Assembly: GCA_965213685.1 (NCBI GenBank)
Contig: CBDBZY010000041.1
Span: 384,001 to 448,000 of the forward strand
Direction: 5' to 3'
DNA length: 64,000 bases
Origin: a bacterium
GTDB taxonomy: Bacteria; UBA8248
Part shown: piece by piece, positions 6,425 through 56,357 of the stretch
Layout of the letters: each line of letters begins with the position of its first letter
Numbering within the stretch: position 1 is the stretch's first letter
Notes under the pieces: generated by a model
The model's database searches: none
Seen by the model: only the letters and a program-made list of their open reading frames with translations
What the model was told of the DNA's origin: nothing
Made by a program: the position numbers and the translations under genes

Positions 6425-6459
6425 TATAATTGTAAGGAACACTGTAGCAAGGAGAGAAT

Positions 6460-15296: not shown

Positions 15297-15356
15297 TTAT
15301 CCCAGACAGAGGCAGCTCACCAGGCGGAGGAGGAGGGTGGATAGGGAGTACATGCC
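15297..15356 (-). pseudogene. Degenerate copy of the P2X-like TM2 exon (GMYSLSTLLLRLVSCLCLG*)
   Basis: Same ccctcag acceptor after a CT tract; similar to GLFSLPTLLLHLV at 32881; shares downstream 'acaaattgttctccagtccagtgg' with 32563. Confidence 0.55.
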
Positions 15357-15676
15357 TGAGGGAGGGGAGGAGAGAGGGAGAGAGGGAGGGAGGGAGGGAG
15401 GGAGGGAGAGAGAGAGGGAGAGAAGGAGGGAGGGAAGGGAGAGAAGGAGAAACAGGGAAAGGAAAGAGGGAGGAAGGCAATGAGGGAGGAAAGGAAGGAG
15501 GGAGGGAGGAGAGAGTGGGAGGGAAGGAAGGAGGGAGAGGGAGAGAGCGAGGGAGGTATATAGGAGATGGCAAACTAGGAGGAAGGGGGATGGTATGATA
15601 CGAAATGTACACGGCATGTTTGGCACGGAAACAGAGGAGGTGTTTGTGAGAATAATATGGCATGGTGGTCATTCAC

Positions 15677-16330
15677 CTTGTGTTCTCCAGGTTTCTAAGA
15701 CTCACAAAAGACAACCTCATCCCCAACCCAACAGCATCTGCAACAGATGAGAGCATAACATATCATGTCAGGAGTGTATGAGCCACCTAAAGAGTGGCGA
15801 AGGAGCATAAAAGTGCAGTTTATCAAAACCTAATGTGCCGCTGCAGTCATAGTTGAACTGCCGTGGGGCCACTGGCTGGCCTCCAACAACGTGCATATTA
15901 GGAAGTTATGATCCACATAGCGGTGTGGTGATATTATATAAGGTATACGCTCCTTTGCTGCCCTTTGGGTGGCTCATATGTTCCTGAATGTGTACATGTG
16001 TACACTGTACATGTACATGTACACAAACATTGGAGTAGAGTAGAAACTGAGCGGTGCATTGCATCCCCTGGTACTACTTTGAACCATGTGGCATCAGCAT
16101 ATGAATGTACAAGGTACTTACATGTACATGTACGTAGAATGCTCTGAACACGTTATCCCATGTACAGGTACATGTATGTAGGTCACCTAATGTACTTGTA
16201 TTATTTTGGAAGTGTTGGAGTTTCCAGTACATGTACATGTATAGTATGCGTGTGTGTGTAGGGCAGCACAGAGTATGTGTGTAGGGCAGCACAGTGTCCA
16301 AAGCAGTCGTCTGGTCCTCCTCATTGTCTG
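15677..16330 (-). pseudogene. CTR9: Two degenerate CTR9-like exons (DNEEDQTTALDT at ~16330-16290; DAVGLGMRLSFVSLRNLENTR at ~15737-15677)
   Basis: Resemble CTR9 'DHEKDQMTCLDTL' and the paralogous exon GAVRLGMGLCFVKLGNLQKAR at 40666-40606, with the same ag|gtgaa donor. Confidence 0.6.
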
Positions 16331-17989
16331 CATACAGTAGCATGCATCTGAAATGAGGTGGAAAGAGGGGGAGGGGGAGGGGCATAGAGGGAGCAAGTAA
16401 AGTATAGAGAAGAGGAGGGAGGGAGGGAGAAAACCAGGCGCAGAACAACAAGTGTGCGGCCACACAAGTGTACATGTATTTATGCTACATGTACTGTACA
16501 TGTACAGAAGTCTAACCACATGTAACATACAATAGCATACAATAGCATACATGTACATCTGCAATGAGATGGAAAGGGGGGAGGGTAGCAGGGGAAGGAA
16601 AGAGGAGGGAGGAAGAGATCCAGGCACACAACATGTGTGCACTAGCAACTGGCCCACATGTCATGTGTACTTATGCTACCTGTACATGCTGAAGCTGGAA
16701 GTGTGTAGACATACACATTACATTGTATATATATTTTTCTAAGCCTTTGAGGCTGCTGTAAATTGTTCGTACATATCGTGATATTGTACATTTCGGACAT
16801 ACACACAAATGTAACTAATGGTTAATGGGTTAACAAGGAACAGTACAAGTGGGAGGTTGGGGAGAGGGAGGAGGAAAAGGGAAGAACGAGACATTGAGGG
16901 GGTGATGGAGAAGGAGCAACAGCAAAACCACTACCTGAGGGAGGGGCAGGAGATGGAGAGGAAAGGAGGGAGGGGAGGCAGGAGGGAGTGGCTAGTGTGC
17001 ATGATCAGTCCTAGAGACAAGGCAATGCAAGGCTACCACTCTCAGGAACAGGGAAAAAGTGAGATGCCTCACGCAGGACTCAAAACTGCAGCATACATGT
17101 ATGTACATATGTACATACTCAGATGCCGTGGTAGCTTAGTGAATAAAGCACAGTGACATGAAAAGGAATGTTGGGAGTACGTACGTGTACATGGGATCAC
17201 AGTGTGGAGAAGGAGGAAGAGGAGAAGGAGGAGGAGAAGGAGGTGGAGAGGGAGGAGGAGGAGGAGGACTGTGCCTGACCAATTCGTATGACCAGGCAGG
17301 CAAGGTACCATTTCTCGGTCTGCACGTCAGATGAATCCAGGTCCGTGCAAAGGTCTTCTCACGGTCTGGTGGCAGACAGTGCTGGGAGGTGGCAATCATG
17401 TGGCACTCACTGCTCGTGGGGAGAGGGAGGGAGGGAGGGAGGGAGGGAGGGAGGGAGTGTTGGAAGAGCATGTCCAAACATACAGTGCCATACATGGATA
17501 TACATGTACATGTACTGTACATGTACACTGTCCCATGTGTATATTTATACATGTACATGTATTTGAAACAGGAGAGGCAGAGGGACAGGGAGATGAAGGG
17601 AGAAGGGAAGGGGATTGAGATGTACAGTGTAGAGGGTAGGAGGTGTGGATGAATAGAGGATGGATCGAGGGAGGGAGGGGGAGGGAAGGAGAGGATGGAT
17701 GAGGGGGGGGAGGGGGAGGGAGGGGGAGGGAGGGAAGGAGAGGGAGGAGGGAAGAGAGGCATGGAACTTGAGCAGCAGCACAAGCCTTACATGGAAGTGG
17801 AGGGGGTGCACTGTACAGTAGAGGGGAATACTGTGCCAGTAACACAATAGCACACATCACTGGACACCCACCAGCCTCACATGCACACAACACAATGCAC
17901 TACCGCACTGCCCCACCCTCACCACACTATAACAGCACTACAACTGCACTGCTATAGCACTGCACTGAACACACATGGGAGGCAGGAGG

Positions 17990-23127: not shown

Positions 23128-24017
23128 TCAGTGTTGCTCTAATGATCCTACCCACACTTGCTGGGAATACCCCCAAACATCCTCCCCTCCAGCTGCAAGC
23201 AGTTCACCAGAGGGGAGTACTGCACAAGAGGGAGCCCACATTCCCACAGGAAGCTCTCCACACCTGCTCCATTTTTTCCCTTCTGCTTCATATCTGTAGA
23301 GCTCCTTTCTTTTCCCCCACCCTCCTACCAGTAGCAAGTGGTTCTGCAAGGCTAAGAGTGTGGGGCCACGTACTGGAGGGGATGGCAGTTCCTGCCATGT
23401 TGGGCCAGTGGTGGTATTGCGAGTTGCATTTGATATGAGGGTGGGGAGGTGGGCAGAGAACATGTGAGGCCGACCACCACTCCAGTGATATGATGAGATG
23501 TATACGTAATCACTAATGATGACTGCTGTCATGCGGTGACCCCCCATAGGCAGTGGCTGTGCACTGTACCACTGGTGAGTGGAGCAGTCCAGGACTTCTA
23601 CTGTGTCCTTGTTGGGGTACCCACATGCCACAATGAGGTATTGCTGGTAGCCCACAGCAGCTGACCATGCTCTACCATTTGGCATTCTTGGGTAGTGCTG
23701 AGTATTCCAGCGGTGACCGTCACTGTCCCATGATTGGATAGCAGTGCTGCCTTCCTCACCACCAGCTAGTAATAGCTGGTCCTTGACTGATGCCATGGCA
23801 AACCAGTGGTCAGTGCTCTTTGGCAGCTGAGACCACTCACCAGTGGTAGAGTTGTATTGCACTATGACATACTCATTGCTGCCCTCCTTAGCAAACCCAC
23901 CTCCAATGTGGACATGTCCTTCAGTAATACAGTTTGGGCACACAAGACTCCAAAGGGCAAGTCCTTTCCTCTCCTCCATTTGAGTGGGAGGGGCCATCTC
24001 AGTGGCTGGACCTGGGG
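23128..24017 (-). pseudogene. Proximal Kelch beta-propeller terminal exon with a 1-bp frameshift near 23918
   Basis: Acceptor ttatag; 890 nt is not a multiple of 3. 'gtccttcag' here versus 'gtcccttcag' in the paralog at 2002-2011. Kelch repeats are otherwise open. Could be a homopolymer sequencing error. Confidence 0.75.
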
Positions 24018-24459
24018 CTATAATGAGGTGAATGATGGCAGGGAGGGAGAGAGGGAGGGAGGGAGGGAGGAGGGAGGAGGGAGAGAGGAGGGAGAGGAGA
24101 TAGGGAGAGAGGAAGAGGGAGAGGCGTAAATGAGAGGAGGGGGTATAGGGGAGGTAGAGACACCAGGGGAGGGGAGGGAAGGAGAGGGGAGGGGGAGGGG
24201 AAAGGGAGGGGGAGGGGGAGGGGAAGGGGGTGGGGGAAGGGGGGGGGAGAGGAAGGGGAGAGGGGGAGGGGAGGGGAGGCGGGGAGGGGGAAGGGGAGGA
24301 GGGGAGGGGGAAAGGGAGGGAGGGGGAAGGGGAGGGGAAGAGGGGGAGGAGGGAGGGAGGGATGAGAGGAGGGGTGGGAGGGATGGGTGGAGGGGAGGGT
24401 GGAATGAGGAGGAATGGAGGGTGAGAGGGCGGGAAGAGGACAGAATAACCACAGCTCAC

Positions 24460-24728
24460 AGATTTTGGTTTGGTTGGAGATGTCTTGTATACTGCAGAAT
24501 TCTTGGTTGTCTGCAAAGAAAGGAAAGAGATCGAGGTGGAGTGAGGCAGGCAAGAATAGAGAATGCTAATCTGCTTTGTCCTCCTTTCCTCTCTTCCTTG
24601 CTTTGTTCTTTTTTGCTTCCCCTCACTATCATTTGCACTTGGAGCATTACCTGCACATCAGCTTGCAGTGGTCCTTGAGGGATCATCTGAGAGTGACCTT
24701 TTGGGCTGGGACTGAGCCTAGGGGGAGT
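24460..24728 (-). CDS. Two phase-0 linker exons of the kinase-Kelch gene (24728-24651; 24510-24460)
   Basis: ctcctccag|78 nt TPPRLSPSPKGHSQMIPQGPLQADVQ|gtaatg and ctttgcag|51 nt TTKNSAVYKTSPTKPKS|gtgagc. Confidence 0.6.
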
Positions 24729-24929
24729 CTGGAGGAGACAGGTTTGCTGTGTTTAGTTCATGACAAGAGATTACTAATCACTACAACAACTTTGTGATAT
24801 GCACCAATCCTATCAGTTTCCTGCAAAGAATCATTACTGAGAACTCTATTACTAGAGTCAGTAGCATGATAACCAGTACATGAATTGATCTCCTCTACTT
24901 ATAAAAATCATGCATATAACAATACTCAC

Positions 24930-26087
24930 CAACACTTGCTTGCTCAGCCGTTCAACCTCTGCCTTGAGGGACTGATTCTCCTGTGTCAGTTGTTGATTCT
25001 CCATGACCAGTTGTGTGTTTTTCTTCACCACTGATGCAATCTGATCATTCTTCTCCTGTTCTTTTGACTCCATTTCTCGTTGCAGTGTTCCAATGTGCTG
25101 GTTCTTGTGTGACTCAATCTGCTGGCTTTGTTTCTTCACTGTCTGCACCAACACCAACCTGTCCATGTGGCATTCTGCATCATCGATCTCACCCCTGGCC
25201 TGCTCCAGTAGCTGCACCACCTGATGGATTGAGGGCCGATCCTCTGGAAAGCTTTTGAGGCATCGCTTGATCATCTGCACAAGAGGATGGTCATCACAGA
25301 ACTGGCTGTAGATCTTTTGCATGTACTCCGCTCGCCGCTCCAGCTCATCTCGAAAAACATGCCTTCGGTGCTCATCTCGGTACACTTGTGCCAGAACCTT
25401 ATGGGGGAAGCGTTGTGTGAGGGTGAAAATGGCCACCACACCCAGCGAGAAGATGTCGATCGTCATGTCGTATCGAGACTCGTCTTCCAGTGCCTCTGGG
25501 GGCATGTAGATAGACGCACCAGGTGCTTTGGTCATGGTGGCTACCGTCAGGCTGGGGACAATCCTAGCCATCCCAAGGTCCGCAATTTTGGCTGTCATGG
25601 CGGAGTTAAGGAGAACGTTCCTCGCTGAGAGATCGCGATGGATCAACGGCGGAGAACGGCTGTGCAGGTAGCAGAGACCTTGAGCGACGTCGTAGAGGAA
25701 CGAGTGCTTGAGGCTCAGGGGAATATCGGGCCGAGTCTCCAGCAGGTCGTGGAGGCTGGTCAGCAGTCGCTCCATCACCAGCGCAGGAAGCCGCGAGTCC
25801 GGCAGCACGCAGATGCCGAGAAAGAGGACGATGTGTGGGTGGCGGAGGGTGCTCATGAGTCGGCACTCCTCAACGAACTGGCCTGCCGCCCTCTCCATCT
25901 CAGCCTGCGGTATTTCGGAGCGGTCTTGGAAGATGTCGTGGATCTTCTTGATGGCGCAGACCGCTCCAGGTATCTCCCCCTCCTCCACGCTGCCGTAGGC
26001 TCCTGAGCCGATTCTTGTGCCGGTTAGTCGCACGTTTTGGAGCTGAAACGCCCTCAGCTCGGGGTAATCGCGAAGGAGATTCGCCAT
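24930..26087 (-). CDS. Protein kinase (TKL-like) plus coiled coil; exon 1 of a kinase-coiled coil-Kelch protein
   Basis: GSGAYG, CAIKK, EEC, HRDLSARNVLL, KIADLG, YMPPE and DIFSLG motifs; heptad-rich tail; 1158 nt open to a phase-0 gtgagt donor; ataattattATG start context. Confidence 0.93.
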
Positions 26088-26388
26088 AATAATTGTCGAA
26101 CGCTCTCTGTGAGAAAATGAACAAACAAGGGCTAGTGGTTTATTCTAGTCACGTGAGGAGTGAATACCAATAATTATGTTATAAATACCGATATCCAGGT
26201 AACCGCGTGGATATTGTCGTATGTATCACTGTGATATTCGTGTTCGTGTCACGGCTTTACAGCGCAGCGCTAGAGCCACACGTATTTCCGTGCACGCATG
26301 CGCGTCGTCTCATGGTGGTCCACTGAGGAGGTTCGTATGTAGATGTTATGGAACTGCAGCAGTTCACTAGGGATTAGCCTGCATGAAC

Positions 26389-28715: not shown

Positions 28716-29289
28716 GGGAGGGCAAGTCATGATTGCGTTCTTCGTCAATTACTCTACCGTCGCTTTCCCCCTACATTTACCAACGCTAAAACGACAGCAA
28801 TTCTTTGGCGCGGTTGCAAATTCGCTGGGAAAAAATTCATATTTCCCGCTACTGTTGGACGTGCGGCGCTATGTGGCGCCAACCGGTGAAGAGGTGGATG
28901 CTCGCCAAAGGGGAGTGAACTAGTTTATGCGCAATGGGTTGCTCGAGGCTTGGCTTGCTACTTTACGGCAGAATTTGCTACCGTTTTTCGAAATTCTGCA
29001 GCACGACAAAAACGATTATATGTCTAGAAAGAAAGATTTAGCACGGATTTTTAAAGCAAACTTAGATAGCCAACATGCTTAGTAATCATCCACCGAAGTT
29101 TCGTCTCTGCAGCATTAGCCGTTATTGGCAAATTTTTTTTCTATAATTAGCGATATGCATATTGCGTAAATTTTATAATTCTATGAACAGACATATCACG
29201 CAAGACTACGTTATTTCGCTAACAGGCATCATTAGGAGAATACAATAAAACATAAATCAGGCAAAATCATGTCTTAGGGTCGTCCTGCC
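28716..29289. mobile_element. Kolobok-like MITE, copy 1 (second copy 60018-60591)
   Basis: TTAA TSD; short imperfect TIR gggagggcaa / tcgtcctgcc; splits the RecQ reading frame; highly similar second copy in a different context. Confidence 0.85.
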
Positions 29290-30061
29290 TTAAGCCTGAG
29301 CAGAAGTGTGTGATTGAAGCATTTTTGAAGGGAAGAGACGTTTTTGTTAGCTTACCTACTGGAAGTGGGAAATCTTTATGCTACGCCCTATTACCTGCTG
29401 CTTTTGACTTCTTGCGAGAGGGTGAAAGATCGATTGTTATCCTTGTTAGCCCGCTGTTAGAAGGAGAGCGCGAAGTGCTTGCTTCACTGAATGTACCGCT
29501 GCCCGCAACTCCTACTAGCTCTCCATACCGCCTCACCCCACTCTCAAGGGCAGCATCAAGCGAGCTAGCTTCGGCTCTCAGTTTCTGCAGCTTCTCCAGT
29601 CGCCCGAAGCAACCGCGGTAGACGATTGTCGAACCTCCTGGCGGAAGAAAGACATACAGCGCTCTGATACACTCGTGAGACGACTTCCTTATGTCTGCCT
29701 ATCGGCATCCTTCTAAAGGCGCCTCCTGTCACGAGAGTTCGGTGAGACTGGGCACAGGCCACACAAACAACACAGCTACTTTAATTCACATTCCATGGGC
29801 GTGACCTTCGGCCGTTAAACGTAATTATTAAATTCCTTCGTGGCACGGAAAGCTGGTCAGAGTGCCCAGACGTATTTTTCCCCGCTCGCTCCTCCCACCA
29901 GAAAAATACGGCGGGCTCGCGAGACTATTCTATAGCATGTGTGGTCCCAAATATCTATTTTTTAATGCAATTGCATAAGCCTTTGTCTATTTTTGGAACA
30001 CTTACACATTACACAATTATGATTGCATGCAAGTGAAGCAAAATAAAATGAAATGAGGTAC

Positions 30062-42003: not shown

Positions 42004-42962
42004 TACCTGGGATACTATGGATATCCTGGGATAATCCCAGGACTCCTCAAAGCATTCCACAGTAGTCCCATAGCAACCACTAATTTAAAATTACCTAGAC
42101 AATCCCAGGATGAACTAAGTTCTCCTTGCAGCATGCCCCTTGTCCGAGTATCCTGGGATTCCTGGGATACACAGACTATCCCAGGATAATCCCGGGATGA
42201 ATGTACATGTACATGTAGTTCTCCTTGCAGCATGCCCCTTGTCCAAGTATCCTGGGATTCCTGGGATACACAGACAATCCCAGGATAATCCCAGGATGAA
42301 TGTACATGTACATGTAGTTCTCCTTGCAGCATGCCCCTTGTCCAAGTATCCTGGGATTCCTGGGATACACAGACCATCCCAGAATAATCCCGGGATGAAT
42401 GTACATGTACATGTACATGTAGTTCTCCTTGCAGCATGCCCCTTGTCCGAGTATCCTGGGATTCCTGGGATTCACAGACAATCCCAGGATAATCCCGGGA
42501 TGAATGTACATGTACATGTAGTTCTCCTTGCAGCATGCCCCTTGTCCAATTATCCTGGGACTCCTGGGATACACAGACTATCCCAGGATAATCGCGGGAT
42601 GAATGTACATGTACATGTAGTTCTCCTTGCAGCATGCCCCTTGTCCGAGTATCCTGGGATTCCTGGGATACACAGACCATCCCAGGATAATCCCGGGATG
42701 AATGTACATGTACATGTACATGTAGTTCTCCTTGCAGCATGCCCCTTGTCCGAGTATCCTGGGATTCCTGGGATACACAGACAATCCCAGGATAATCCCG
42801 GGATGAATGTATGTACATGTAGTTCTCCTTGCAGCATGATATTTGTCCGAGTATCCTGGGATTCCTGGGATACACAGACTATCCCAGGATAATCCCAGGA
42901 TGAATGTACATGTACATGTACATGTAGTTCTCCTTGCAGCATGCCTTTTATCCGAGTATCCT
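42004..42962. repeat. Minisatellite of ~8.5 units, 97-105 bp, with internal inverted repeats
   Basis: 'ctccttgcagcatg' recurs at 42122, 42221, 42320, 42425, 42524, 42623, 42728, 42825 and 42930; length varies mainly by (TACATG)n copy number. Confidence 0.97.
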
Positions 42963-43589
42963 GCCTGCACAAGTATGATCATGATATCTATCCTGGGAAT
43001 GTGCCCCTACAGGTATCAACTTTAATGGAAATTGTGTCACTAAATGCACAAACCTCGTACTACAAACATTACTAATACCATTAATTCATAATTAAATTAC
43101 GAACCACATTTGAAATCAAAAATCAATGATGGTATGGCTGATTGGTATATAGCATTTTGGTAATGTTTCACACACGTTTGAACATAATATGGCCTGTGGA
43201 TAGACATAGGGTGTGAGACAAAGTTATAAGGTTAGGATGAAACTAGGATAGTGATGAGGCTATGTGATTAGATGATCTGTGATATCATGATGAGGTGGTG
43301 ATGAAGTTGTAAGAGATTTGGACGATCACTGTTGGCTGCGTTCGGTGAACTCATTTGCTAGATACTTCCTTGGGGATTTCCTCGGAGACTTCCTCATTGG
43401 GACTACAACAGAACAACTACGTTTCCTACTCTCCAGGGAATTCCTATCCAATGAAGTGAGAAACAATTAAGCACTAGTGTTTCATGTGTAACAACATGTA
43501 TGCTACTCTTCCAACATAAGCCGCAAGCATATAATATATGCTGTTATTGGGTCTTCACAAGTTAAAGGCCAAGATAAATACACCAATGC

Positions 43590-45780
43590 ACGTACATTGT
43601 GATGTCCTCTTCCTCTATTGCAGCCTTGAATTGCATCAATGACACCCCAAACTTCATGAGTTTTTCTGCCAGCTTTGCTGCCTCTTCTGGGTTTGATGGT
43701 AGCTCAGCTTTCTTTAACTCGTAGAGCTATACCAATGTTACATTAAAAAAATAAATAGACACACATGCATACATGTATATGCAAGTTGAAACACATTATC
43801 TCTTACGCACCATGTTAGTTCCACGCTGGGGTTTTCTCTCGATAACTTGCCCCAACTCTGCAGCCTGGAGGGCATAGAAGCCTTGCACTGCACCTTCTTT
43901 ATTGCCACGATCTCTAAATTTTTTCATTGCTAGTAGTGCATTGAGGTACAGAACCTTGCCTGGCAGAAGCAGTGAGTAGGCAGCATTAGCATGTGCCCAT
44001 CCTCCCATACGATCAGATATCTGTCCTTTGCCTGTGCAAATTTTATAAATATCTTTATAGATTGTTAATAATACACACTTGATACGCTGCATCATACAAG
44101 GCATAGGAATACTGTAGCATATGACATTGATCAGGAAGGCTGACAACCCATGTTGGTAGTATGTGTGTAGTGATAAGTGTACAGACCTGTTATGTCTACA
44201 TATGACTGTACATGTAAGTAGAGTACAAGATTTTGTGTCCTATTGTACGTCTCTTTGCTACGTTTAAGCCTCCTTGCTCAATGCTTTTAGTCATTTGTTA
44301 TTAGCTCTACATAAGGACAGTATACCTACACATGTAACTAACCTGGCTTCAATGCTTGGATTGCCTCACGTATATCACCTCTTCCTGCCAAATATGCTGC
44401 ATGCTGCAAGCAAAGGTCAACAAAGTTGACAGCAGCTGTAATGGCCTCTTCAGAAACGTGGTCTGGCACTTTGAGAGGGGTGTCACAGTGAAACAGAACA
44501 TGAAGGGCTGCAGCCACACGAAGAACTTGTCCCTTACTCTTGCTCAACATTCCTAGTGATATAAGAGTGGTTAATCCAATAACACCTCAGAAGTAATTGA
44601 TATAGGGGATTGAATATTATAATTCCACACCATGTGAATTTATGAGTGCATGTTTCAACTAGCTGAAGTACTCAGATACTCCCAGAATCTTAGAAGTTAT
44701 GTATTAGTAGTATCCTAACTTGCACTAGGCTTGTGGGAGAAGATGACAGCATGATGTAGGCAGGCCATGACCAGGAGTGCTTCTTAAATAGAGTAATGTG
44801 TCAGCCAATGTTTACTAGAAACACTAAGGGTGCAAAGTGTTAAATGATACTTCTTGGGTGTGAATAACACCTTACCAGATAAAAGGTCATCCATGCATGA
44901 AACCTGTTGGATTTGCTCTTGGATCATGTCAAACTTGTCCCTGAATGTTGTGATGGACCGAGACAGCTTCCAAGCCCTTATTTCCTTGCCATTGGTCCAC
45001 AAGGATGCCATTAAGCCAACTGTACAAAGAAAAATACACTGGCTATAAAATCTCATGTTCTGGCCAAGAGGTGTGTATTGGTGTATGCACTTTCCATGGC
45101 CACTACTGTACCAACATGTATACTATGGTTTTAACACAGAGCTGATGGTTGAAACTCACTAATAGAAACTGAAAAATCCTTATCAACTCTCTGAAGATCA
45201 TCAAATCGTACAATGTTGGGTTTTGGAATACACCACAAAAACCGTTGACTGAAGCCTTTCTCGGCATTTGTAGGCAACTCCATCAAAGTGCGAGCAACTG
45301 CAGGTTGTGTAAATCCTCCAACAGTGAGGCCAGTATACTTCATTTCGAAGTTAGCATCACCAGACACTACAAGGTAACAGATCATGTAAACCCTTTCATG
45401 CTAAGGTGTATGAAAGGGTAGCCCACCTGTTTTTCTAACCCACTGACTTCCACCATAAAGTTGGAGAAGAAGTGCTAACTCATGGGAGTCAGAAAATCCC
45501 CGTCCACGAAACACATTGATTTGTGAGAGAAACATAGGTAGTTCATCGTAGAGACCCAATAGCTTCCAGTTGTTGTCATTCATAAGGGCACCCATCTTCT
45601 CAAAGGACTGATCGTCCAAAAACCAAGATGGCTGGTTCTCCTCAAGGCCACTGTTGGATCTGGCATCCTCAACAAGCTTGCGTAAATACTTGCACAAGGA
45701 CGATTTTCCGCTTCCAGTGGGCATGCACACAGAGATCCACAGGAGGACTGGCTCAATCCAGTCTGTACCTTCCACAGACT
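43590..45780 (-). pseudogene. Spliced DUF3987/YfjI-like P-loop NTPase gene, 5'-truncated
   Basis: WIEPVLLWISVCMPTGSGKS (Walker A), SFEKM, LGLYDE (Walker B), LLLQLYGG..WVRKT, TVGGFTQP, KGFSQRFLW and SKSKGQVLRVAAALHVL..AAVNFV, spread over about 6 GT-AG exons. Confidence 0.75.
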
Positions 45781-48700
45781 GGATTGGGAGCTGGTTCATC
45801 ATCAGCTGTTTTGCTGGCTAGGGTGTGCACAGTTTGTCCACAACTACTGTGAGAAATATCATGCACCTCACGAACAATTCCTGCTTCATACTCTTCAATT
45901 AGTTGGTGAGGTAGCGATGACTCTGGCTCCCACATGGCAGTTGTTCTGTCCTTTCCAAGCCAAACAACCTGCATGTAAAGTTGAACATGTTTCATGGACT
46001 ATGAGTTATGTACCTAGGTGACAAATGCACCAAAATGGAAGTAGATTGTTATGTAATAGGACACAGGAATCTTGTGGTCAGTTTACATAGCAAGAGTGCT
46101 TCATTAATGTTCCAACACTTTACATTCTGAACACCTGGCCTAGCATATCAAATTTCAGTACATATTTGAATGAGTTAGGAAGAATAGTTTACATGGACTT
46201 CCATTGTAGTGAAGGATACTAGAAGCATAGGGTAGAAAGTATAAGAGAGCAATAATTTATTAGTACAGCTGTGTGTATATGCTTAATATGAGGGCTCTTT
46301 AATTAGGATATACATGTACAAGTACATATGTGTTAATCTACACCTACACATTAGTTTGGCAAGAGGGCATAACAAGAGAGCCTTAAAGGGGGGGGGGGGA
46401 CATGCCCAGTATCCAAAAAAATTTTATTGCATAATTGTAATTTCATGAATATTTAGATAATTTTAGTGATTTTTAAATATTTTTTACTCGCAACGTTAAC
46501 CGGAAAAACACGTTTCTATTCCGTTGCGGTTTCAGCCTACTTAAAATTCATAAATCTTCTTCCTGTATGGGTGTGGTCACGTGTGACGTCACAGAGGGGA
46601 GAGTATCGCTGGTCTAGCCAGTCAGCGTACGTGGTTACAGCCGTGGATCGTGCTCCTAGTAGCCGTTCTAGCGATGCTAGTAGCATCTTAATCTTCTACT
46701 ATTCTTAGTATTTCTTGCAAGGGACCAAGGAAAGCAACGGTGCGTCCGAGTACCGCGATTTAGACTGAGGAAGTGTGGTTGTCCGCGGTACCTTGACTGG
46801 AGGATACGACTCGTTTCCGCGCACAAAGGGACGACTCAAGCGAACCAAGACCAGAACAGACTCAGTTACAGCGAGTGATGAGGCGGTGCTACATATGAAA
46901 GACGTTTCCATGTAGCTATAGCTTGGAGCTAGTGAAATGAGTCAGTGCAGTGGCAATTGACTCTGAGTGTACATGCAGGCTGAGCCCTGACAGCGGACGA
47001 AGTGCTGGAGCTTGGCTATCATGACCACCAAGCACATTGCCAGGGCATGAAAGATTTGTTTAAATATCTGGGTTCTCCAAGCTGCCTACTGCTCTTACAA
47101 ACAGCACCATGGTAGTCGGACTTCAGGGAACATGAGTAACAGTCACATGTGCATTTGTCTTGTTTGCATGTTTCATCTGTCAGCTTTTTCAAGCAGTATA
47201 AATATATCGCTGGTCAGTGCTGGAGGTGACTTGGAAGGAATGTGAGCCGTTACCCAACTGTGTTGTTGTTATGTGGTGGTCAGAAAACATTTCCATCGAA
47301 ACGATGTACCCAATTCATTGAATGATACAAAAGATGTACCAAAATCGTTTAATTATAGATGTAAGAGCTGTATCATGTGCCCATACACATACAGATAAGC
47401 TATAGTTAATGTATACTTCACTTGTATAACAGTCATCACATCATGCTAATGAAGTCATACTATTACATGTAAATGCTCATAGCAGCAATACAGTGCTTGT
47501 GATACAGAATATGGTGTTGACGTCACCTCACAGCTCACAGCTAAAGCTACCTCTGCAGGTGAAACTCAGCATCTTTAGTTATATACCAAGCACATGAGCC
47601 ATTGATCTCAGCAACACATACATGTATATAGGTATTGCTTGTACTAGAGCATTCCTTTTGCTTTGACCCTCCACACAACAGACTCACGGGCATCACTTGC
47701 TGGGATTGTCCTTAACGGACCTAGTCTCAGCCAAGACCGCTCTCTCCTTTTGTATGCCTGTCTTGGTTCTTTACCAGCCTCGTATCACCGTTTGTAGTTG
47801 CTTCAGAGCTTGTGGTAACTCTACCTCCACCGCTACCGCTAACCCAGCTGAAGCGGAATAACAACTCGGGTGCAGCTTGCCACTCGGACTCCAAATACGG
47901 CGGAAAATGTACCAGGCCTGCTTGGTCGGTCCTACAGTTGCTTCAGTGGTTGACTCGAGCTCAAAACGTTCTTCGGTGAAGTGCGTTTCTATACAGAACG
48001 CTCCAATGTCGCGAGTTCTCTGAACGTGTCTGGCCCACCGCTGTGTCAGAACTACAAGGCTAGGAATCTTGAAGAAGCTGATACTACCATTTCTAGTGTT
48101 AGTATATATAGCTGCAACGCACAACTTCACCGTTTCTGATACTTCGTGGCCAACTAGCGCGATTCTGTGTGTACACGAACGCACGTTGAACTCGATCTCT
48201 CTCCCCTCTCTGACGTCACGTGTAACCACGCCCAGACCGGAAGAATTTTAGGGAATGTTGGGAATGTTGAAATTACTTCAATTATCGCACGTTTTCTAGG
48301 CTCGTTTTCCAGGTAATGCTGGAACTAAAAAATTTAGAAAAATATTTTTAATTATCTACACTGCATGGGTATCACAAAAATGTACAAAGTGACATAGTGA
48401 TTTTGGGCATGTCCCCCCCCCTTTAATAAAGTGAGTCTGCTATCACCATCCAACAGAGGGCAGCTACATACAAGCACATGATAAAATTAATGATGCCTAT
48501 AGTACCTGATAATGAGTCTGGGTTCTTGTTAGTCGCTTGCTAGGTATCAGTCCAACCTGATTTGGTGCCATATGTTGATCTGATGTTTCTGAAGTGGCTT
48601 GGGTGGCTGTTGGCTTATGCAAACCACAGTATCTAGACTTGAAATCAGGTGTGTTGCTGCAGCCAGTTGTAACTCTACCAGGAAGACCCAGGTACTCTAC

Positions 48701-49906
48701 AAATCCTGCTTCCATAGCAAAACACACATCACGGTGGTTTTTCATGTTTCCATCTATTACAAGAGTTTCTCCACAGCCTCTAGCCCTGCAGCGATGTCCT
48801 GTTATGATACACAAGGTAAATACGTTGGGGGTGGGGGGGACACATTTAGCATAAACAATAACTGTGCTATGCATATTATATACATACTATCCACCCAAAC
48901 TTACTACACATGCAACTAAAATGTGCATGCATGTGTATCCATATCCTAGTATAGTGACATCTCACCAGAGTTTTTCTTCATGAAAGCCTCATAAAATGTG
49001 CTACCAATTTGCAGCAGCGTGTCATTGACAGCTCCATGAAGAGGAAGGTCAGACAACTTCAAGTCATACCAGGCAGTAACTCTTAAGATGGCATACTGAA
49101 AATGGGCATCTTCAAGCCTTCATCTGTCCATAAGGCGGCGTTGGTTCAAGGAGCTGAAAGGTATGCTGCAAGTACATAATTATACCACATAAATAATTTG
49201 TTTTTAAACACTGCATGCACTGCACATGAATGGGGACACACCTGTGAAAAAAATGGTCGTTGGAACTGCTGTTGTGGACATGGTTGTATATATCAGTTCG
49301 CTGCTTGTAACTAAGTTGCCCTATTACTACCTCTGCATCAAGGCGCTTCAACATGTCCATTGAAAAGGCTGTTTCTTTGGAAGATACAAAATAGGGAAGG
49401 GAATTCCAGTCACTGTTGTAAATTACAGCACAAGATTGGGGTCCACCTTTGGTGTAGTAACCATAGTACTGAAAGAAGGGACATATCCTACGAGAACAGT
49501 ACTTGTGGAAATGGGAGGCTGGTAAAGTTCCACGTAAATCATCATACACAACAACTCGCACTGGTCTGTCTTTCCTAACTAAAAGTTTGCTGCCACAGAG
49601 AATGCAGGTACTGTTGTCACTTATGAGTGGAAGTCCCAATGGTTTGGCTGCAGGTAACTCCAGTTGAAGTACTTGCTTAAAAAGTACTTCATCAGTGGCA
49701 AAGGCAGATGAATTCAGTGTTTGGATATTTTCTGCTAAGGCTTTAGCTTGCTCAGGTGTTAGTGAAGATTCACTCTTCCCATCTGTTGCAAACTGCACAA
49801 CAAGACTCCAAAACTCTGGCAAATGCGGTGATAGAAAAACTGCTGCAAAAAGGATCTTTCTAAGGATGGATGCATCCTTTATATACTTTGCAATAAGCTC
49901 CAACAT
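45781..49906 (-). mobile_element. KDZ-superfamily transposase N-terminal region: CxC5-like + CxC6-like + chromodomain, spliced, catalytic part missing
   Basis: Exon 49906-49242 CILCG..VVYDD..HFHKYCSRRIC..YYGYY..YFVSSKETAFS; exon ~49167-48966 with a stop; exon ~48799-48507 HRC..GC..LVIDGNMKNHRDVC..GCSNTP..SRYCGLH..KRLTRTQTHYQ, splicing to 45968 VVWLG..WEPESSLP (chromodomain). Confidence 0.72.
46387..48422. mobile_element. Kolobok element remnant with a degenerate THAP domain, inside the KDZ intron
   Basis: TTAA TSD; TIR a(g)nacatgccca; subterminal inverted repeats at ~46570 and ~48200; minus-strand CVAA..FFKIP..QRW..C.ETHF..RF at ~48130-47960. Confidence 0.82.
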
Positions 49907-50089
49907 CTCCTGACTCTGATCTAGCTACACTCAGCAACACACCATGTGCTTTCACACCTTTCTGAGCATGCTCACATGCAAGTTGCAGCACATGGACTTC
50001 TCATGCTATGTGGTTTTACACCCTTCTGAGCATGCTCAGATGTGAGCTGTAGCACATGGTATTTGCTTGAGTGTGAAAGAAATGGCAGC

Positions 50090-50462
50090 CATATCACCAT
50101 GTCACCGTCGCCACCCAGCCACTGCTGTTGACAATATAGATGCGTGTGTGCACCCAGCATTGAACTGTATGCTTTATCCATTTCATGTGGTCCCGGTAGT
50201 ATAATAGGTAGGGCATCAGGCGGTGAAGAAAGTATGACCAACAAGCCACTGGTTTTGGAGATTACCTCACACAAAGTATATGCATATTATGTCACCATCA
50301 CCACCAGCCACTGCTGTTGACAATATACATGCGTGTGTGCACCTAGTATTCAACTGTATGTTAACCATTTCACGTGGTCCCGGTAGTGTAACAGGTAGGG
50401 CATCAGGCGGTGAAGAAAGTATGACCAACAAGCCACTAGTTTTGGAGATTACCTCACACAAA
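50090..50462. repeat. ~187-bp tandem duplication upstream of the KDZ gene
   Basis: 'ggtagggcatcaggcggtgaagaaagtatgaccaacaagccact..ggagattacctcacacaaag' occurs at ~50206 and ~50394. Confidence 0.88.
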
Positions 50463-51189
50463 GCATGTCACTTCACAATCCCCCAAAAGCATCTACTATT
50501 GACCATAAAACGTCTCATAACAAGGTACCAGAAAACTTTGAACGTTGTCCCAGTAGTGGACACAGGATAACGTTTTTTCATAGTTTCTAAACCATCCTGG
50601 TACAGAGATAATCTCACACAAACACCAGAACAGCTACTTCATAGAACATTCAAGCGCGAAAACGCAGCTGTCATGAGCTTCTATACAGACAGCGTACATA
50701 CACGACACTCACAGAGTCCCACGTAATCCAAGAGAGGACTTGAAATACGCAGAGCCGTCCTAAGAGGCTAGTTCAACGCGCTTTTGTACACATAAGTCGT
50801 GCACGTCCATCTTTCGCAACCGATGCAAGGAGTGTTTCAAGGATTTCCGTAAGTTGTCCGTGTACGCGTGCCGTTTCTAATCCACGTAGTCTACAATATC
50901 TATGGTGCAAGCGTGCATGGGCATGCGTTTGGGACCTTTGTCCGGATAATCATGATGTCCGTGTTTCAGGAGTCCAGCATAAGGGGTTCGACTGTACTAC
51001 TAGTGGAATGCTGGGCGAGCGGGAGCGAACCAGCTACAATCATAATTAAATGCTTATCTATTTTGATACATTTTAGTTTATGTACTATATACATGTAATG
51101 AAGATCTTATGAAAGTAGCACCATTTGCAAGATTAGCCAAAGTGTACAACCCTCAGACTGGCCTCTTGGAGACAAAGTTAATGTCCATG

Positions 51190-51873: not shown

Positions 51874-54786
51874 TTAAGCACATGATATAATGTATATAAT
51901 ATCATCGAACGGAGAAAATCGACCAAAAGCAATTCTGTAACGTCGAATGACTTCAGCACACAGCATATCCTCAGAAGAATACATTTTTATGTGTCGATGA
52001 CCAGAAATAAAGTTATAACCAGCGAAAGAATATGCACACTGAGATGCTTCTTTGAAGACGTACTTAACAAGAGGTGAGAGAGATGTTACAGCACGAGAAA
52101 GCATAGAATGAAACCTCATATACAACATATTAGACACTGACTGAATGTTACTAACACAGTGTACAATTCTTGTGTGAGAGTGTGGTGGTAGGTTCCATAT
52201 TCTCCTAAACATTTTGTTCAATGAACATTCAATGATACGCAAATTCTTGCAAGACAAATACCATAGTGTGCTACCATACATAGACAAACAAAATTGCTTG
52301 ACAAGAAAATTCTTTACGGAGAGATCTGCAAATGGAAATACACACTGAACAAAGTTAGCTTTCCGAGTCATATCTTTCGTTGCCCTTATAATATCAGATG
52401 TGTCATCCAAATTGTAAGACAGCACATGCCCGAGATGAGTGATTGTGTCCATGAAGTCCAGAGCAATACCACCAAAGTTAATGCAATCTTTACATGAGGA
52501 TGAAGAGGACAAACCAAATCTGATCAATTGAGTCTTTTCTGCATTGAACTTGAGGCCATGAGATTGTGCGAACTCCTCACAAGTTGTTAGCATAATTCGT
52601 AAAGCAGATGGACACGGAGCTAGCAGGGCTATGTCATCTGCATAACACACTGCACCAACAAAGTGAGCCCCCCAATAACATCCAACACCAATTCGAGACA
52701 GCTTCTGCAATAATCCATCCAAATACACAGCAAACAACACAGGAGACAACACACTACCTTGACGAACACCATTAGAAACAGAAAACGAATGAGACACACA
52801 AGAATTCCAGCGAACACACATTTGTTGACTACTATACCAACTTAGAAGAAAATGGAGAATAGGAGTTGGGAGACCACGAGAATGAAGAATATCAAATAGA
52901 ATGCCATGATCCACCAAATCAAATGCTTTGCTTGCATCTAAAAAACAGCCATAAACCTTAGAACCTTTACGTATATACCTAGAAACAATATTCTTTATGA
53001 GTCCTGTGCAAAGAGTTGTTGAATGACCTTTCTTGAAGCCAAATTGCAAAGCACTACTTGTAAAGTAGGATTCATATCTGGAGAGTATTATTCTTTCCAG
53101 GACTTTACTCAAGAGAGATGCAATTGCAATTGCTCTGTAGTTTTTACTGCTAGAATGATCTTTGTTATTTTTTGGTATGGGGACCAACGTACAATCTCGA
53201 ATACACTTGGGCATGTATCCATGACGAAGAACAGCTGTGAAAAAAGCAGACAGAGGACCAGCAATGGGGAGTGCAGAGAACCTTAAATGCTCAGCAGATA
53301 GCTGTGCAGAATCCACCTTGTTAGGCTTGATTAGATGGATTGCATTCAGTACATCATCAATGGAGACATGAACAGTTGAAAGATGATCAAGAGATAAAGA
53401 GATATTTGAAGCTTGAAGCAAAGTGTGCCGTAAAGAGGAACTGTGTGTATTGAGAAGGCCCTGCAACTTAGAAGCCCACAAGTTTGCAATGTCATTACCA
53501 TCAGAAACACCATCAACAACTGGAGCACATCTGGAATTTCTGGGTTTTGTCAATTTATTGACTAGTGACCAAAAGTCTTGAGGGTTTTTTCGACAGTAAG
53601 ACTTAGCTAACTTATCCCGTAACAAATACATCTGTTGCCTTTTGACTTTACGGGCTGCAAATTTATACCTCTTTTTTGCCTTCTTCTTTATATCAAAGAG
53701 AACGCCCGATTTAGGGCATCCAGCTTCCAACCAAACATGATACCAGAAATTGGTTTCATGCCTCAACTTCCTCGGCCCATCATTCCAGCCCACCAGCCCT
53801 CTGTGCTTTGACTTCATGTGAGAAGGAATGCAGGATGCTGCACATTTCAAAAGGCATGTGACAAGCATATCAGCAAAGCGATCAATACAACTAAGATGTG
53901 ACAAGCAATTAGGCGAACAACAAGAAGCAACATCAGGAGGAAACGGTGGAAGTGACTGAGCAACTAGCTTAGAGTAATTATCAAGATCTTCTTTAGATGC
54001 TTTGTCCCAGTCCAGACTAGGAGAGGAAGAAAACGAATGAGAAGTGGTATCTATCAAAGAGCAATCGACGTTAAGAGTAAATGCAATTGGATGATGGTCA
54101 GAAAGATTAGAACCCAGAAGCACACTTGTAACATGTGACACTATATTTGAGTTATGAATAGAACACAGAACATGATCAACCCAAGATGTTACAAGCCCAT
54201 CATCTCGCTCGTAAGTAAATTGAATAGCGTCTGGAAAGGAAAGATCTCGTGCACAGAGATCCCACTCATCCATAAAATCCAAAAGCAACTGAGTTAAACT
54301 GCCACCCCGAGAAAAATCCACATTAAAATCACCAACAAGTAAATTCACATCACACTTATGAAACTCCAAGAAGCCCTCCAACTCACCAATTGTACTTAGG
54401 TACTCATCAAAGCAAAATGAATGCGACTGAGCAGGCATATACACACAAACCACAAGGACAGAAACACCACAGGAATCATGCAATTTGACAGCACAAAAAC
54501 GATTAGAATTACATAAAAGTGGTGTAATGGAAGAAAACAAAGATCGCCGATACAAAATGGCACAGCCCCCATATGGCCGTCCACACAACAACACACTACC
54601 ATCAATACCACTAACCGAGACACTGTGAAAATCAGGGTGAAACTCATTCAGCAGATACAGCTGATCAGGTAGCAACCAATGTTCCTGAATGAAACATATA
54701 TCAAGAGAACCAATCAAGTCCCAAAGAGTTTGTTTACCACTATTCCAACCTCTACAATTATAAGTAAGGCACTGTAGCGGGGCCAT
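51874..54786 (-). CDS. LINE ORF2: APE endonuclease + reverse transcriptase (970 aa)
   Basis: TYNCRG, IQEHW, GDFN, DHVL and SDHHP (APE); NYRAIA, QFGF, FLDASKAFD, GVRQGSVLSP, YADD and FNAEKT (RT). Confidence 0.98.
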   Translation of the reverse strand: MAPLQCLTYNCRGWNSGKQTLWDLIGSLDICFIQEHWLLPDQLYLLNEFHPDFHSVSVSGIDGSVLLCGRPYGGCAILYRRSLFSSITPLLCNSNRFCAVKLHDSCGVSVLVVCVYMPAQSHSFCFDEYLSTIGELEGFLEFHKCDVNLLVGDFNVDFSRGGSLTQLLLDFMDEWDLCARDLSFPDAIQFTYERDDGLVTSWVDHVLCSIHNSNIVSHVTSVLLGSNLSDHHPIAFTLNVDCSLIDTTSHSFSSSPSLDWDKASKEDLDNYSKLVAQSLPPFPPDVASCCSPNCLSHLSCIDRFADMLVTCLLKCAASCIPSHMKSKHRGLVGWNDGPRKLRHETNFWYHVWLEAGCPKSGVLFDIKKKAKKRYKFAARKVKRQQMYLLRDKLAKSYCRKNPQDFWSLVNKLTKPRNSRCAPVVDGVSDGNDIANLWASKLQGLLNTHSSSLRHTLLQASNISLSLDHLSTVHVSIDDVLNAIHLIKPNKVDSAQLSAEHLRFSALPIAGPLSAFFTAVLRHGYMPKCIRDCTLVPIPKNNKDHSSSKNYRAIAIASLLSKVLERIILSRYESYFTSSALQFGFKKGHSTTLCTGLIKNIVSRYIRKGSKVYGCFLDASKAFDLVDHGILFDILHSRGLPTPILHFLLSWYSSQQMCVRWNSCVSHSFSVSNGVRQGSVLSPVLFAVYLDGLLQKLSRIGVGCYWGAHFVGAVCYADDIALLAPCPSALRIMLTTCEEFAQSHGLKFNAEKTQLIRFGLSSSSSCKDCINFGGIALDFMDTITHLGHVLSYNLDDTSDIIRATKDMTRKANFVQCVFPFADLSVKNFLVKQFCLSMYGSTLWYLSCKNLRIIECSLNKMFRRIWNLPPHSHTRIVHCVSNIQSVSNMLYMRFHSMLSRAVTSLSPLVKYVFKEASQCAYSFAGYNFISGHRHIKMYSSEDMLCAEVIRRYRIAFGRFSPFDDIIYIISCA

Positions 54787-56357
54787 TAAGAATGTTCTGT
54801 GCCCTTGCTGAAGGTCAAATCAGATGCAGAAATATCAAGGGAGGTGATGGAAGGGTGGGTTTGTGTTGATTGCAAGGCAGAGTCAGAGTCACCTGTACAC
54901 AGGGACTCAGAGCCAGCTGGAGAGACACCAGACCTGACATGGGTAGAGTCAGAGTCACCTGTACGCAGGCTCTCACAGCCTGCTGGGGAGACATTACATG
55001 ACATCTCGGCAACAGGGTCATGCTGAGGGAGGGAGACATGTGAAACATCAGAATGACCAGAAGCCCCTTTAGACTTATCTGAGAGTGATTGAGACTTCTT
55101 CTGACGCATATCGGGTGAAAGATCCTCCCGAATGAACAGACGAGCAATGTGAAAATTTTTTAATTTCCGCTTTTGCATTAGAACCATTCTCCTGTCCCAT
55201 GGAGTGGCAAACTTAATCAGCACAGGACGTGGAGGAATAGCATTTTCTGCCACCCCTGACCTCTTCTTGTAACGACCCAGCCGAAATAGGTCTTTGATAG
55301 CAAGCTTACTCCCAGTGAGATATTCTAGAACCTCATCCACCCTCTCCCTTGTGCCCACCAGAGAGGCACATTCTGCAAGGCCAAAAAGTACCACATTTGA
55401 CTCTCTGTCATGATGATCAGGAAGAGAACTGGAGGTAGACTTCCTGAGTGGCAGCTTCATAGGCAGGGAGGAGTGGTTTGTGGATGAAGCACTTTGCTCA
55501 TGCTGTTGTCCACTGGCCACCACTGAAGAGTAGGTGGCCTCTGTTGTGCACACAGGTGGACCTACAGCATTGGAGGCTTCTGATCTAGTACCTCCAGATG
55601 TAAGAAAGGTGGACAACTTCTTCTCAAGGTCCGTAACAGCAGAGGTGAGAGCAAGCAGTGACCTTGTGTTGTCCTGTACCTGCTCAGACACAGGGTCAAG
55701 ACTCAGGGATGGTATCCTAGGGAGCTCTGTGGCTTCACAATAAATAGGAGGGACTGAGCTCTTTGAATCTAATGCATCAAAAGCAGCCAAAATATCTTCT
55801 AGATCCGCATCTATCCGCTCCCTTTTATCAGAGCCACGCCTCTGATGATACACAAGGCCAGCACCCTTCAATTCTTCCTTGCACGACTCCCAGAGCAACC
55901 TTTTGGAATGCTCAACGGCAGACTGATCAAACCTCTCCACCACAATGGAAGATAGGCTGGTCTTGTCACCTCGTAAGCGGAATGCCTTGATAAAGGCCAA
56001 AACTACATCAATCAACATTGTACTCTCAGCCTGCATAGCAACATCTGATGTGATAGGGGCTGAGGGTGTCTCAGCAGACGTACACACAAGGTTGTAGTCA
56101 CTAAGAGGGCGACCACCATGAAAGAGTGAAGACTTCCACTTCTTTGCAGACTTTCCACCCAATCTTTCAAACTCTAAAGGTGTAATCCATTTAGAAGCAC
56201 TCAAAACACACTGACCAACACGCTTAGCCCGCTCCTTATGCAACCGATCAATATACAACTGACCACTCACACTGCCACACTCAACTGAGATATATGAACC
56301 ATTGCAATCACTCTCAATTCTAGGCAATAACAACGAACCACTCTGAGACATAGCCAT
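54786..56357 (-). CDS. LINE ORF1 (523 aa): N-terminal SAND-like domain, coiled coil, RRM-like region
   Basis: ISVECGSVSGQLY..CV..KWITPLEFERLGGKSAKKWKSSL..GRPL (SAND); NVVLFGLAE, RLGR, PRPVLIKF and FIREDL (ORF1 RRM/CTD). Stop overlaps the ORF2 start as TAATG. Confidence 0.9.
   Translation of the reverse strand: MAMSQSGSLLLPRIESDCNGSYISVECGSVSGQLYIDRLHKERAKRVGQCVLSASKWITPLEFERLGGKSAKKWKSSLFHGGRPLSDYNLVCTSAETPSAPITSDVAMQAESTMLIDVVLAFIKAFRLRGDKTSLSSIVVERFDQSAVEHSKRLLWESCKEELKGAGLVYHQRRGSDKRERIDADLEDILAAFDALDSKSSVPPIYCEATELPRIPSLSLDPVSEQVQDNTRSLLALTSAVTDLEKKLSTFLTSGGTRSEASNAVGPPVCTTEATYSSVVASGQQHEQSASSTNHSSLPMKLPLRKSTSSSLPDHHDRESNVVLFGLAECASLVGTRERVDEVLEYLTGSKLAIKDLFRLGRYKKRSGVAENAIPPRPVLIKFATPWDRRMVLMQKRKLKNFHIARLFIREDLSPDMRQKKSQSLSDKSKGASGHSDVSHVSLPQHDPVAEMSCNVSPAGCESLRTGDSDSTHVRSGVSPAGSESLCTGDSDSALQSTQTHPSITSLDISASDLTFSKGTEHS

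Follow-up and report, generated by a model that had tools for sequence, protein, structure and literature searches.

A defective, rearranged locus that is very probably the remnant of a two-gene KDZ-kind DNA transposon carrying a DUF3987 NTPase gene

Results

Two gene remnants lie side by side in a 64-kb window

We analyzed a 64-kb stretch of DNA (G000:C41:384001-448000, hereafter the window), in which parts of a transposase gene of the KDZ type and parts of a gene for a P-loop nucleoside triphosphatase (NTPase) of the DUF3987 family abut on the minus strand. Taken together with related loci, the locus is very probably what remains, at low copy number and in defective and rearranged form, of a KDZ-kind DNA transposon with two genes, the second of which codes for the NTPase; the low copy number follows from a word depth equal to that of the flanks. 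The window copy keeps gene 1 as far as the chromodomain, gene 2 from about residue 70 and one tandem array, and it is incapable of autonomous transposition. An earlier reading made from the DNA letters alone (the sequence-only reading) was right to regard the copy as defective.

All retained exons of both genes are open and without internal stops. For the first gene, the earlier description of a CxC5 exon, a second Cys/His cluster and an intron-split chromodomain on the minus strand agrees with what we found:

49270-49906, minus strand: KDZ exon 1, with the start codon and the CxC5 zinc cluster (Pfam CxC5; high-scoring alignment to residues 3-213 of exon 1 of the related locus L008)
48946-49119, minus strand: KDZ exon 2 ('RLEDAH..'), matched by tblastn to ten loci (L006-L012, L019, L022 and L001)
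48497-48886, minus strand: KDZ exon with a Cys/His cluster, a DGN motif and the first half of the chromodomain (eight-copy alignment)
45778-45998, minus strand: KDZ exon with the second half of the chromodomain (Pfam Chromo 17.9 bits; 47% identity to the chromodomain exon of L008)

The open reading frame (ORF) at 49112-49924 on the minus strand, with a Met start at 49906, matches Pfam CxC5 (PF18718) with 27.5 bits (cut-off 26.9, E-value (E) 3.7e-6), and in a protein atlas the exon falls in CxC5 clusters with a score of 0.97, the nearest cluster being commonest in Rotifera, which serves as a lead only. The second cluster follows the pattern H-x-C..GC..V(I/L)DGN..N..C..AG..E..C..C..H, with 14 invariant positions in the eight-copy alignment. 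The cluster is real, but its earlier label, CxC6, finds no support in Pfam, since none of the eight copies matches CxC6 (PF18721) or KDZ at E≤10 and a CxC6 profile scan of the whole assembly gave no match at the window locus or at the related loci. The D(G/A)N motif presumably marks the region of the first catalytic aspartate in KDZ transposases. As the chromodomain is split by an intron, Chromo (PF00385) is matched on the second half only (17.9 bits at model positions 20-51 of 53, cut-off 25.1); the same half-match occurs in loci L001 (12.4 bits) and L008 (14.8 bits), all within model positions 18-52. KDZ exons with the D2 and E catalytic residues were found nowhere in the 64 kb.

The second gene retains the following parts:

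45427-45777, minus strand: NTPase exon with Walker A and Walker B, cut on its 5′ side (Pfam DUF3987 37.8 bits; alignment; tblastn start at 45784-45787)
45367-45426, minus strand: 60-nt GT-AG intron in phase 1 (read from the sequence; the exon ORFs of homologues end at the same residue)
45149-45366, minus strand: NTPase exon with GGFTQP and QRFLW, DUF3987 model positions 189-243 (28.6 bits; 61% identity to L008 exon 3)
44874-45044, minus strand: NTPase exon (41% identity to L008 exon 4)
44341-44553, minus strand: NTPase exon with LRVAAALH, DUF3987 model positions 312-362 (25.5 bits; 59% identity to L008 exon 5)
43808-43981, minus strand: NTPase exon of the C-terminal region, 'LPGK..KKFR..NKEGA' (60% identity to L008 exon 6)
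43562-43747, minus strand: last NTPase exon and stop codon (tblastn to the L001 copy; matched interval 43613-43747)

The motifs on which the DUF3987 assignment had been based could all be read (Walker A MPTGSGKS, Walker B LYDEL, GGFTQP, QRFLW and LRVAAALH) and the Pfam matches of 37.8 and 28.6 bits lie over the cut-off, with 58.6 bits to DUF3987 (PF13148) when neighbouring NTPase pieces of the window are joined in frame; the 60-nt intron agrees with the proposed GT-AG splicing. In an alignment of 25 homologues the Walker residues G35, K38, D91 and E92 are conserved in at least 90% of the sequences, and in an alignment of nine they are invariant. The NTPase N-terminus is lost, as had been proposed: homology begins at 45777 ('SVEGTDW'), the Pfam matches of the window begin at model position 122, and homologues have about 70 more N-terminal residues. 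Model positions 3-68, which are matched by both NTPase copies on another contig of the assembly (C18), are unmatched in the window, and the first, N-terminal NTPase exon was found nowhere in the 64 kb.

The two genes are paired head-to-head in related loci

The assembly of the window (G000) contains two further NTPase copies, both on contig C18. The first (L001, at about 21.6-26.7 kb) has the NTPase and the KDZ gene head-to-head on opposite strands, with tandem arrays on both outer sides; its KDZ gene comprises exon 2, the DGN cluster, the chromodomain and catalytic exons with YDDGCH, VDKLHMKGH and NTEICEQTFSWL, and it is degenerate, having an altered Walker A, a frameshift and no CxC5. The second (L002, at about 807 kb) consists of the NTPase with a weak remnant of KDZ exon 2 upstream, again head-to-head (E 0.007). 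KDZ parts adjoin the NTPase in two of the three copies of this assembly.

Twenty-nine metagenome loci, obtained from a contig scan with the NTPase exon alignment, were then searched with KDZ exon translations. KDZ parts were found upstream of the NTPase, and on the strand opposite to it, in 19 of them, or 19 of the 24 whose upstream flank is 1.5 kb or longer. The distance from the CxC5 5′ end to the match of NTPase exon 2 is 366-829 bp in 16 loci; L020 has 1,345 bp here and L023 has 3,616 bp, while L003 is centrally deleted. Six record sets contributed the 19 linked loci, which can be sorted into about five deep lineages (six including the window), between which the NTPase exon diverges by 39-71% and the CxC5 exon by 55-65%. 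A Mantel test of NTPase against CxC5 distances, used solely for counting the deep lineages, gave r 0.88, a value reached in none of 5000 permutations and driven by two groups of close kin.

The pairing is thus recurrent, and the part of the sequence-only reading that stands is a two-gene element composed of a KDZ transposase gene (CxC5, chromodomain) and an intron-bearing DUF3987 NTPase gene. The part that does not stand is the tandem layout, in which both genes of the intact element would lie on one strand and the window copy would have arisen by one internal deletion removing the catalytic core and the NTPase N-terminus. The window genes do share a strand and are at most a few bases apart; against this, the tandem arrangement occurs in none of the 29 loci, L001 in the same assembly is head-to-head and a contig from another sequencing run shows the window's own locus head-to-head, which makes a tandem ancestor highly improbable. 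The surroundings are rich in transposons (the retrotransposon at 51874-54819 and the Kolobok-type insert, both described below), as would suit a chance neighbourhood of an unrelated KDZ element and an NTPase-carrying element or gene. The spacing and orientation, fixed in 19 of 29 loci that span about five deep lineages, and the position inside common terminal repeats leave next to no room for such a coincidence.

Three further observations concern these and other KDZ loci. By eye, an ORF resembling a PIF/Harbinger DDE transposase lies inside the NTPase gene of L003 (10861-11364), and a tyrosine-recombinase ORF (DIRS/Crypton-like) truncates the NTPase of L017 (7811-8908). A third KDZ lineage (L032, G000:C64:1552001-1568000, at 6614-8848) has catalytic exons only, with 37% identity to L001; it lies between two inverted tandem arrays, has no NTPase and resembles a derivative formed by internal deletion.

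Both genes belong to one mobile unit bounded by inverted arrays and terminal repeats

Loci L009-L012 are near-identical copies from one assembly, and L009 and L010 share 93-99% identity across both genes. The left flanks differ between L009 and L010 and the right flanks between L009 and L011, so that both genes must have moved within one unit. Imperfect terminal inverted repeats of about 31 nt are present in L009 (701-731 and 13609-13639) and also in L010, L011, L012 and L023. Inside them lie inverted arrays of 50-66-bp units, as in L011, where 65-bp arrays occupy 754-2112 and 12559-16733.

The clearest intact copy is L008, whose contig, 7.6 kb long, has arrays at both ends and, between them, both genes with open exons: eight KDZ exons (from 4381 down to 1721) and seven NTPase exons (from about 4905 to 6830), with start codons about 520 bp apart. 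Its CxC5 scores 28.4 bits against the cut-off of 26.9, and two of its exons give collinear matches to Pfam KDZ (PF18758), exon 7 at positions 119-172 with 15.5 bits and exon 8 at positions 179-217 with 19.2 bits, each below the cut-off of 26.6, as is the KDZ copy on contig C64 (17.4 bits).

The window retains one candidate array in the position that the arrays occupy in the relatives:

42118-42963: tandem array, 99-bp unit repeated 8.4 times, candidate subterminal array (Tandem Repeats Finder; about 650 bp past the NTPase 3′ end)

A partner or second copy of this array was found nowhere in the assembly, and the termini of the window copy were not found. Palindromes of the form TCC(N0-2)GGA occur at 35 per kb in this array and at 0.83 per kb in the whole window, and at 21-35 per kb across the arrays of the window, L011 and L032 (6614-7204), with none in one L001 array; they may be binding sites of the transposase, but we do not rely on the pattern because it was chosen post hoc.

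The same-strand junction is probably a breakpoint of an inversion

Two positions delimit the rearrangement:

45777/45778: breakpoint 1, where the chromodomain exon meets the truncated NTPase exon in a different frame (frame switch; joint in a contig of run X1; contig tails of runs X3 and X5)
49944-50070: two diverged tandem units of about 64 nt, with breakpoint 2 at about 50059/50060 (sequence; joint in the contig of run X1)

The abrupt switch into another reading frame that had been noticed near 45780 is thereby placed at 45,777/45,778. Upstream of the KDZ start, the stretch 49944-50463 holds the units of about 64 nt, each bounded by an 8-nt inverted repeat, and then a 187-bp tandem repeat in 1.9 copies; the second breakpoint falls at the end of the second unit (50,008-50,059).

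Contigs of four other runs from three studies were compared with the window over 43400-50000, 32 of 2196 contig pieces being listed. All four runs share substitutions relative to the window and therefore none is the window's own source; depth is uniform and low over both genes. A contig of X1 with a depth of 229 follows the NTPase as far as 45,777, where it jumps to about 50,059 and changes strand, running downward from there into the CxC5 exon; 52 nt of it, mapped to 49,944-49,995, belong to the second unit. In X3 and X5, contigs arriving at 45,784 from the right end in tails that disagree with the window sequence. From the X1 joint and these breaks we conclude that the locus has, in those samples, the head-to-head order usual in the family, with about 150 bp between the KDZ start codon and the 5′-truncated NTPase, a central deletion such as is seen in L003 and L001.

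The same-strand junction of the window is probably one breakpoint of an inversion of about 4.3 kb (45,778 to about 50,059), and the same-strand run-on would result from the inversion of the gene-1 segment relative to gene 2. The explanation of the junction as a simple internal deletion has to be given up, given the head-to-head order in 19 of 29 loci and the joining of 45,777 to about 50,059 on opposite strands in the X1 contig. Nor was the catalytic core lost at this junction, as had been supposed, because the place of the D2 and E exons would be on the far side of the other breakpoint, and the window lacks them throughout.

Alternatively, the junction at 45,777/8 might be an assembly error, the true arrangement being the head-to-head, centrally deleted one of the other runs. 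The sole bridging contig of X1 that we saw has that arrangement, the contigs of X3 and X5 break at 45,778-45,784 and the same region is centrally deleted in L003 and L001. That evidence comes from the 32 listed pieces, and the four runs differ from the window by shared substitutions, which leaves a private inversion possible. Because a search for a long inverted repeat flanking both breakpoints, which might mislead an assembler, found none, we think a true private inversion more probable than an assembly error, which we hold to be unlikely, though well short of negligible.

The same data bear on whether the locus is a domesticated pair of host genes (a chromodomain and zinc-cluster protein together with a truncated NTPase) and not a decaying transposon. 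The open exons and the low copy number would fit such a pair, as would its presence in runs with several organism labels and the fact that five of the nine listed substitutions in NTPase exons are synonymous. In the KDZ exons only two of the seven listed substitutions are synonymous, neither the catalytic exons nor the NTPase N-terminus is retained and the arrangement varies between samples; the synonymous counts (16 coding changes among 36 listed of 181 differences) are too few to decide. We consider domestication quite improbable and keep to a decaying transposon.

The NTPase belongs to a family of replication-type helicases

The only full-length relative recovered is P0035, a protein of 469 residues named as an uncharacterized protein of a nemertean, which matches DUF3987 with 101 bits and the phage family phrog_2373 'DNA helicase' with 86.7 bits; in the atlas it lies nearest to clusters of DUF3987 proteins from eukaryotes (commonest in Rotifera) and from phages, again a lead only. 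Word-indexed protein searches for longer or near relatives returned two fragments for the NTPase exon, none for the CxC5 exon and only P0035 itself for P0035, so that they yielded no relative annotated as fused or full-length. In a HMMER search of representatives with 415 matches, one of the 150 listed exceeds 300 residues and the others are exon-sized fragments. No relative was found with the NTPase alignment among viral contigs and genome contigs, and a PDB sequence search gave nothing at E≤10. The AlphaFold model of P0035 (28-row alignment; mean predicted local distance difference test 51, predicted template modelling score 0.35) is too poor to use.

DUF3987 proteins have been described as superfamily 6 (SF6) helicases, distant relatives of MCM, which are usually adjacent or fused to a primase and have a C-terminal winged helix (PMC4889955), and one PriCT-DUF3987 protein has been characterized as a Walker-dependent 5′-3′ helicase (PMC11724360). 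At the loci studied here a PriCT domain was not detected and there is no primase or polymerase partner.

Other features and the setting of the locus

The intron between the chromodomain halves is filled by a further element, as the sequence-only reading had recognized:

46383-48422: Kolobok-type insert of 2,040 bp (TTAA on both sides, AG..CT termini, inverted ends of about 150 nt, THAP remnant)

Its TTAA and its AG..CT termini agree with the TTAA duplication and 5′-RR..YY-3′ termini given for Kolobok elements in PMC9587614, and the insert is of that type; its THAP remnant scores 19 bits against a cut-off of 23.9. The insert is high-copy, with a word depth 50-100 times that of its flanks. It is skipped exactly in contigs of X1, X3 and X5, where 46382 is joined to 48423 with a 4-nt overlap, and its absence from these three runs indicates that the insertion is polymorphic or younger than the split between the samples.

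Two more features were annotated in the window:

51874-54819, minus strand: retrotransposon of the long interspersed nuclear element (LINE) type with an uninterrupted ORF of 981 residues (Exo_endo_phos 44 bits, RVT_1 115 bits), beyond the KDZ 5′ side
29256-29460, plus strand: fragment of a RecQ/DEAD-type helicase, 'LPTGSGKSLCY' (DEAD 37.9 bits)

The latter accounts for weak NTPase-like matches at 28.8-29.6 kb of the window, which we rejected as a further NTPase copy. At 23128-26144 on the minus strand two long open frames look like host genes by eye, one Kelch-repeat-like and one protein kinase-like with a coiled-coil tail.

The assembly (contigs C1-C71) mixes a bacterial genome of about 65% guanine-cytosine (GC) content with contigs of 42-53% GC. 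The contig of the window has 46% GC and carries spliceosomal introns, a LINE and microsatellites, from which we conclude that it is eukaryotic, animal-like host DNA. Eukaryote-like contigs of 42-53% GC (C64, C18, C41, C16, C51, C7 and others) total about 4.5 Mb. Some of the public runs that contain the window stretch are labelled sponge metagenome; there is no RNA run among the 24 listed runs that contain it.

Discussion

Model of the intact element

In the intact relatives two multi-exon genes are set divergently around a shared region, from which both would be transcribed. Gene 1 encodes a transposase with the order CxC5, Cys/His-DGN segment, chromodomain and KDZ catalytic exons (YDD.CH.., VDK.H.KGH, DTE.CEQ.FSWL) and gene 2 the DUF3987-family P-loop NTPase, and both lie between inverted subterminal tandem arrays with units of 50-100 bp and short terminal inverted repeats. 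This layout, the repeats and the near-identical copies with different flanks are observed; the mechanism proposed next is inferred from them. In such an element the zinc clusters may bind the subterminal repeats, the chromodomain may tether the transpososome to methylated chromatin and direct integration there, and the KDZ DDE core would perform cut-and-paste. The NTPase, co-expressed from the shared divergent region, would act as an obligatory accessory ATPase. Tentatively, its part could be the unwinding of DNA at the ends or in repair or replication of the donor or target; somewhat less readily, it could be an assembly or target regulator in the manner of Mu, Tn7 and IS21, and a smaller share of likelihood goes to other roles.

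Several points weigh against reading the locus in this way. Ten of the 29 loci have no KDZ part; L005 among them has a flank of 827 bp only, L017 has its NTPase 5′ end cut by the tyrosine-recombinase element and L029-L031 are weak matches, which leaves five (L024-L028) unexplained. The related loci all come from few metagenome record sets, probably of similar hosts. L009 and L011 share the left flank but not the right, which may reflect an assembly chimera within the arrays. Aligning flanks, which the sequence-only reading had proposed as a way to define the ends, yielded the terminal inverted repeats of about 31 nt but no readable target-site duplication: none is clear in the flanks of L009, L010 and L011, whose contigs are possibly chimeric in the arrays. 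Pfam KDZ stays below its cut-off on every single exon and has no match in the window itself. Finally, with 32 of 2196 contig pieces listed, the window's own junction may also exist in the other runs, and the inversion, as weighed above, carries its own smaller chance of being an artefact.

Relation to known systems

AcademH and Helitron are eukaryotic DNA transposons that encode helicases of other superfamilies, fused to or paired with other nucleases; the present element likewise has a helicase-type NTPase, here as a separate DUF3987 gene beside a KDZ transposase. In prokaryotes, Mu (MuA/MuB), Tn7 (TnsB/TnsC) and IS21 (IstA/IstB) combine a DDE transposase with an adjacent dedicated P-loop ATPase, and such ATPase partners are a hallmark of bacterial transposition systems; their likeness to the element described here may be a functional analogy. 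Eukaryotic DDE transposons are, to our knowledge, generally thought to need the transposase only, and chromodomain targeting is known mainly from retroelements. The original descriptions of Zisupton and KDZ elements are reportedly those of Boehne et al. in 2012 and Iyer et al. in 2014.

With Zisupton/KDZ elements the element shares a multi-exon transposase gene, an N-terminal CxC cluster (CxC5), C-terminal KDZ motifs and terminal inverted repeats (PMC12730594, PMC9297572 and, for the multi-exon structure, PMC9297572); the target-site duplication of Zisupton is given as 8 bp (PMC12730594). It differs from them in its second, divergently transcribed DUF3987 NTPase gene, in a chromodomain that separates the DGN segment from the remaining core, in its long inverted subterminal tandem arrays and in matching Pfam KDZ below the cut-off. 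Fungal KDZ and other DNA transposons with a TET/JBP dioxygenase gene likewise carry the gene of an accessory enzyme inside their terminal repeats, but the passenger here is a helicase-family NTPase and the hosts are animal-like (PMC12730594). Prokaryotic and phage DUF3987 helicases (AgaPH beside the primase-polymerase AgaPP, PMC11724360; phage SF6 helicases, PMC4889955) belong to the same Pfam family, have Walker A and B and are borne by mobile elements, whereas in the present case the gene is interrupted by spliceosomal introns, lies in a eukaryotic genome and has a DDE-type transposase as its partner.

In the literature searched (Repbase and Dfam lay outside its scope) we found no paper linking DUF3987 to eukaryotic transposons, or any helicase to KDZ/Zisupton. 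In the available text of PMC12730594 'helicase' refers to Helitron, and a paper on fungal CxC5/CxC6 (PMC7641404) has no helicase. Against this literature, a KDZ variant with a DUF3987 gene is probably undescribed.

Significance

It is conceivable, although we regard it as rather doubtful, that a clade of animal KDZ elements obligatorily co-inherits a phage- or plasmid-type, SF6/MCM-like DUF3987 helicase that is required for mobility. If true, this would be the first eukaryotic system of a transposase with a dedicated NTPase, an analogue of Mu, Tn7 and IS21, or else a helicase-assisted replicative variant of cut-and-paste. The retention of the KDZ and helicase unit across about five deep lineages besides that of the window suggests a mechanistic requirement. 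The element also suggests a route by which a phage- or plasmid-type family of replicative helicases may have entered animal genomes, as well as a chromodomain-guided DNA transposon, and it accounts for the 'DUF3987' and 'CxC5' gene fragments that turn up here and there in animal assemblies and in bacterial ones contaminated by host DNA, of which the contig of the window is one case.

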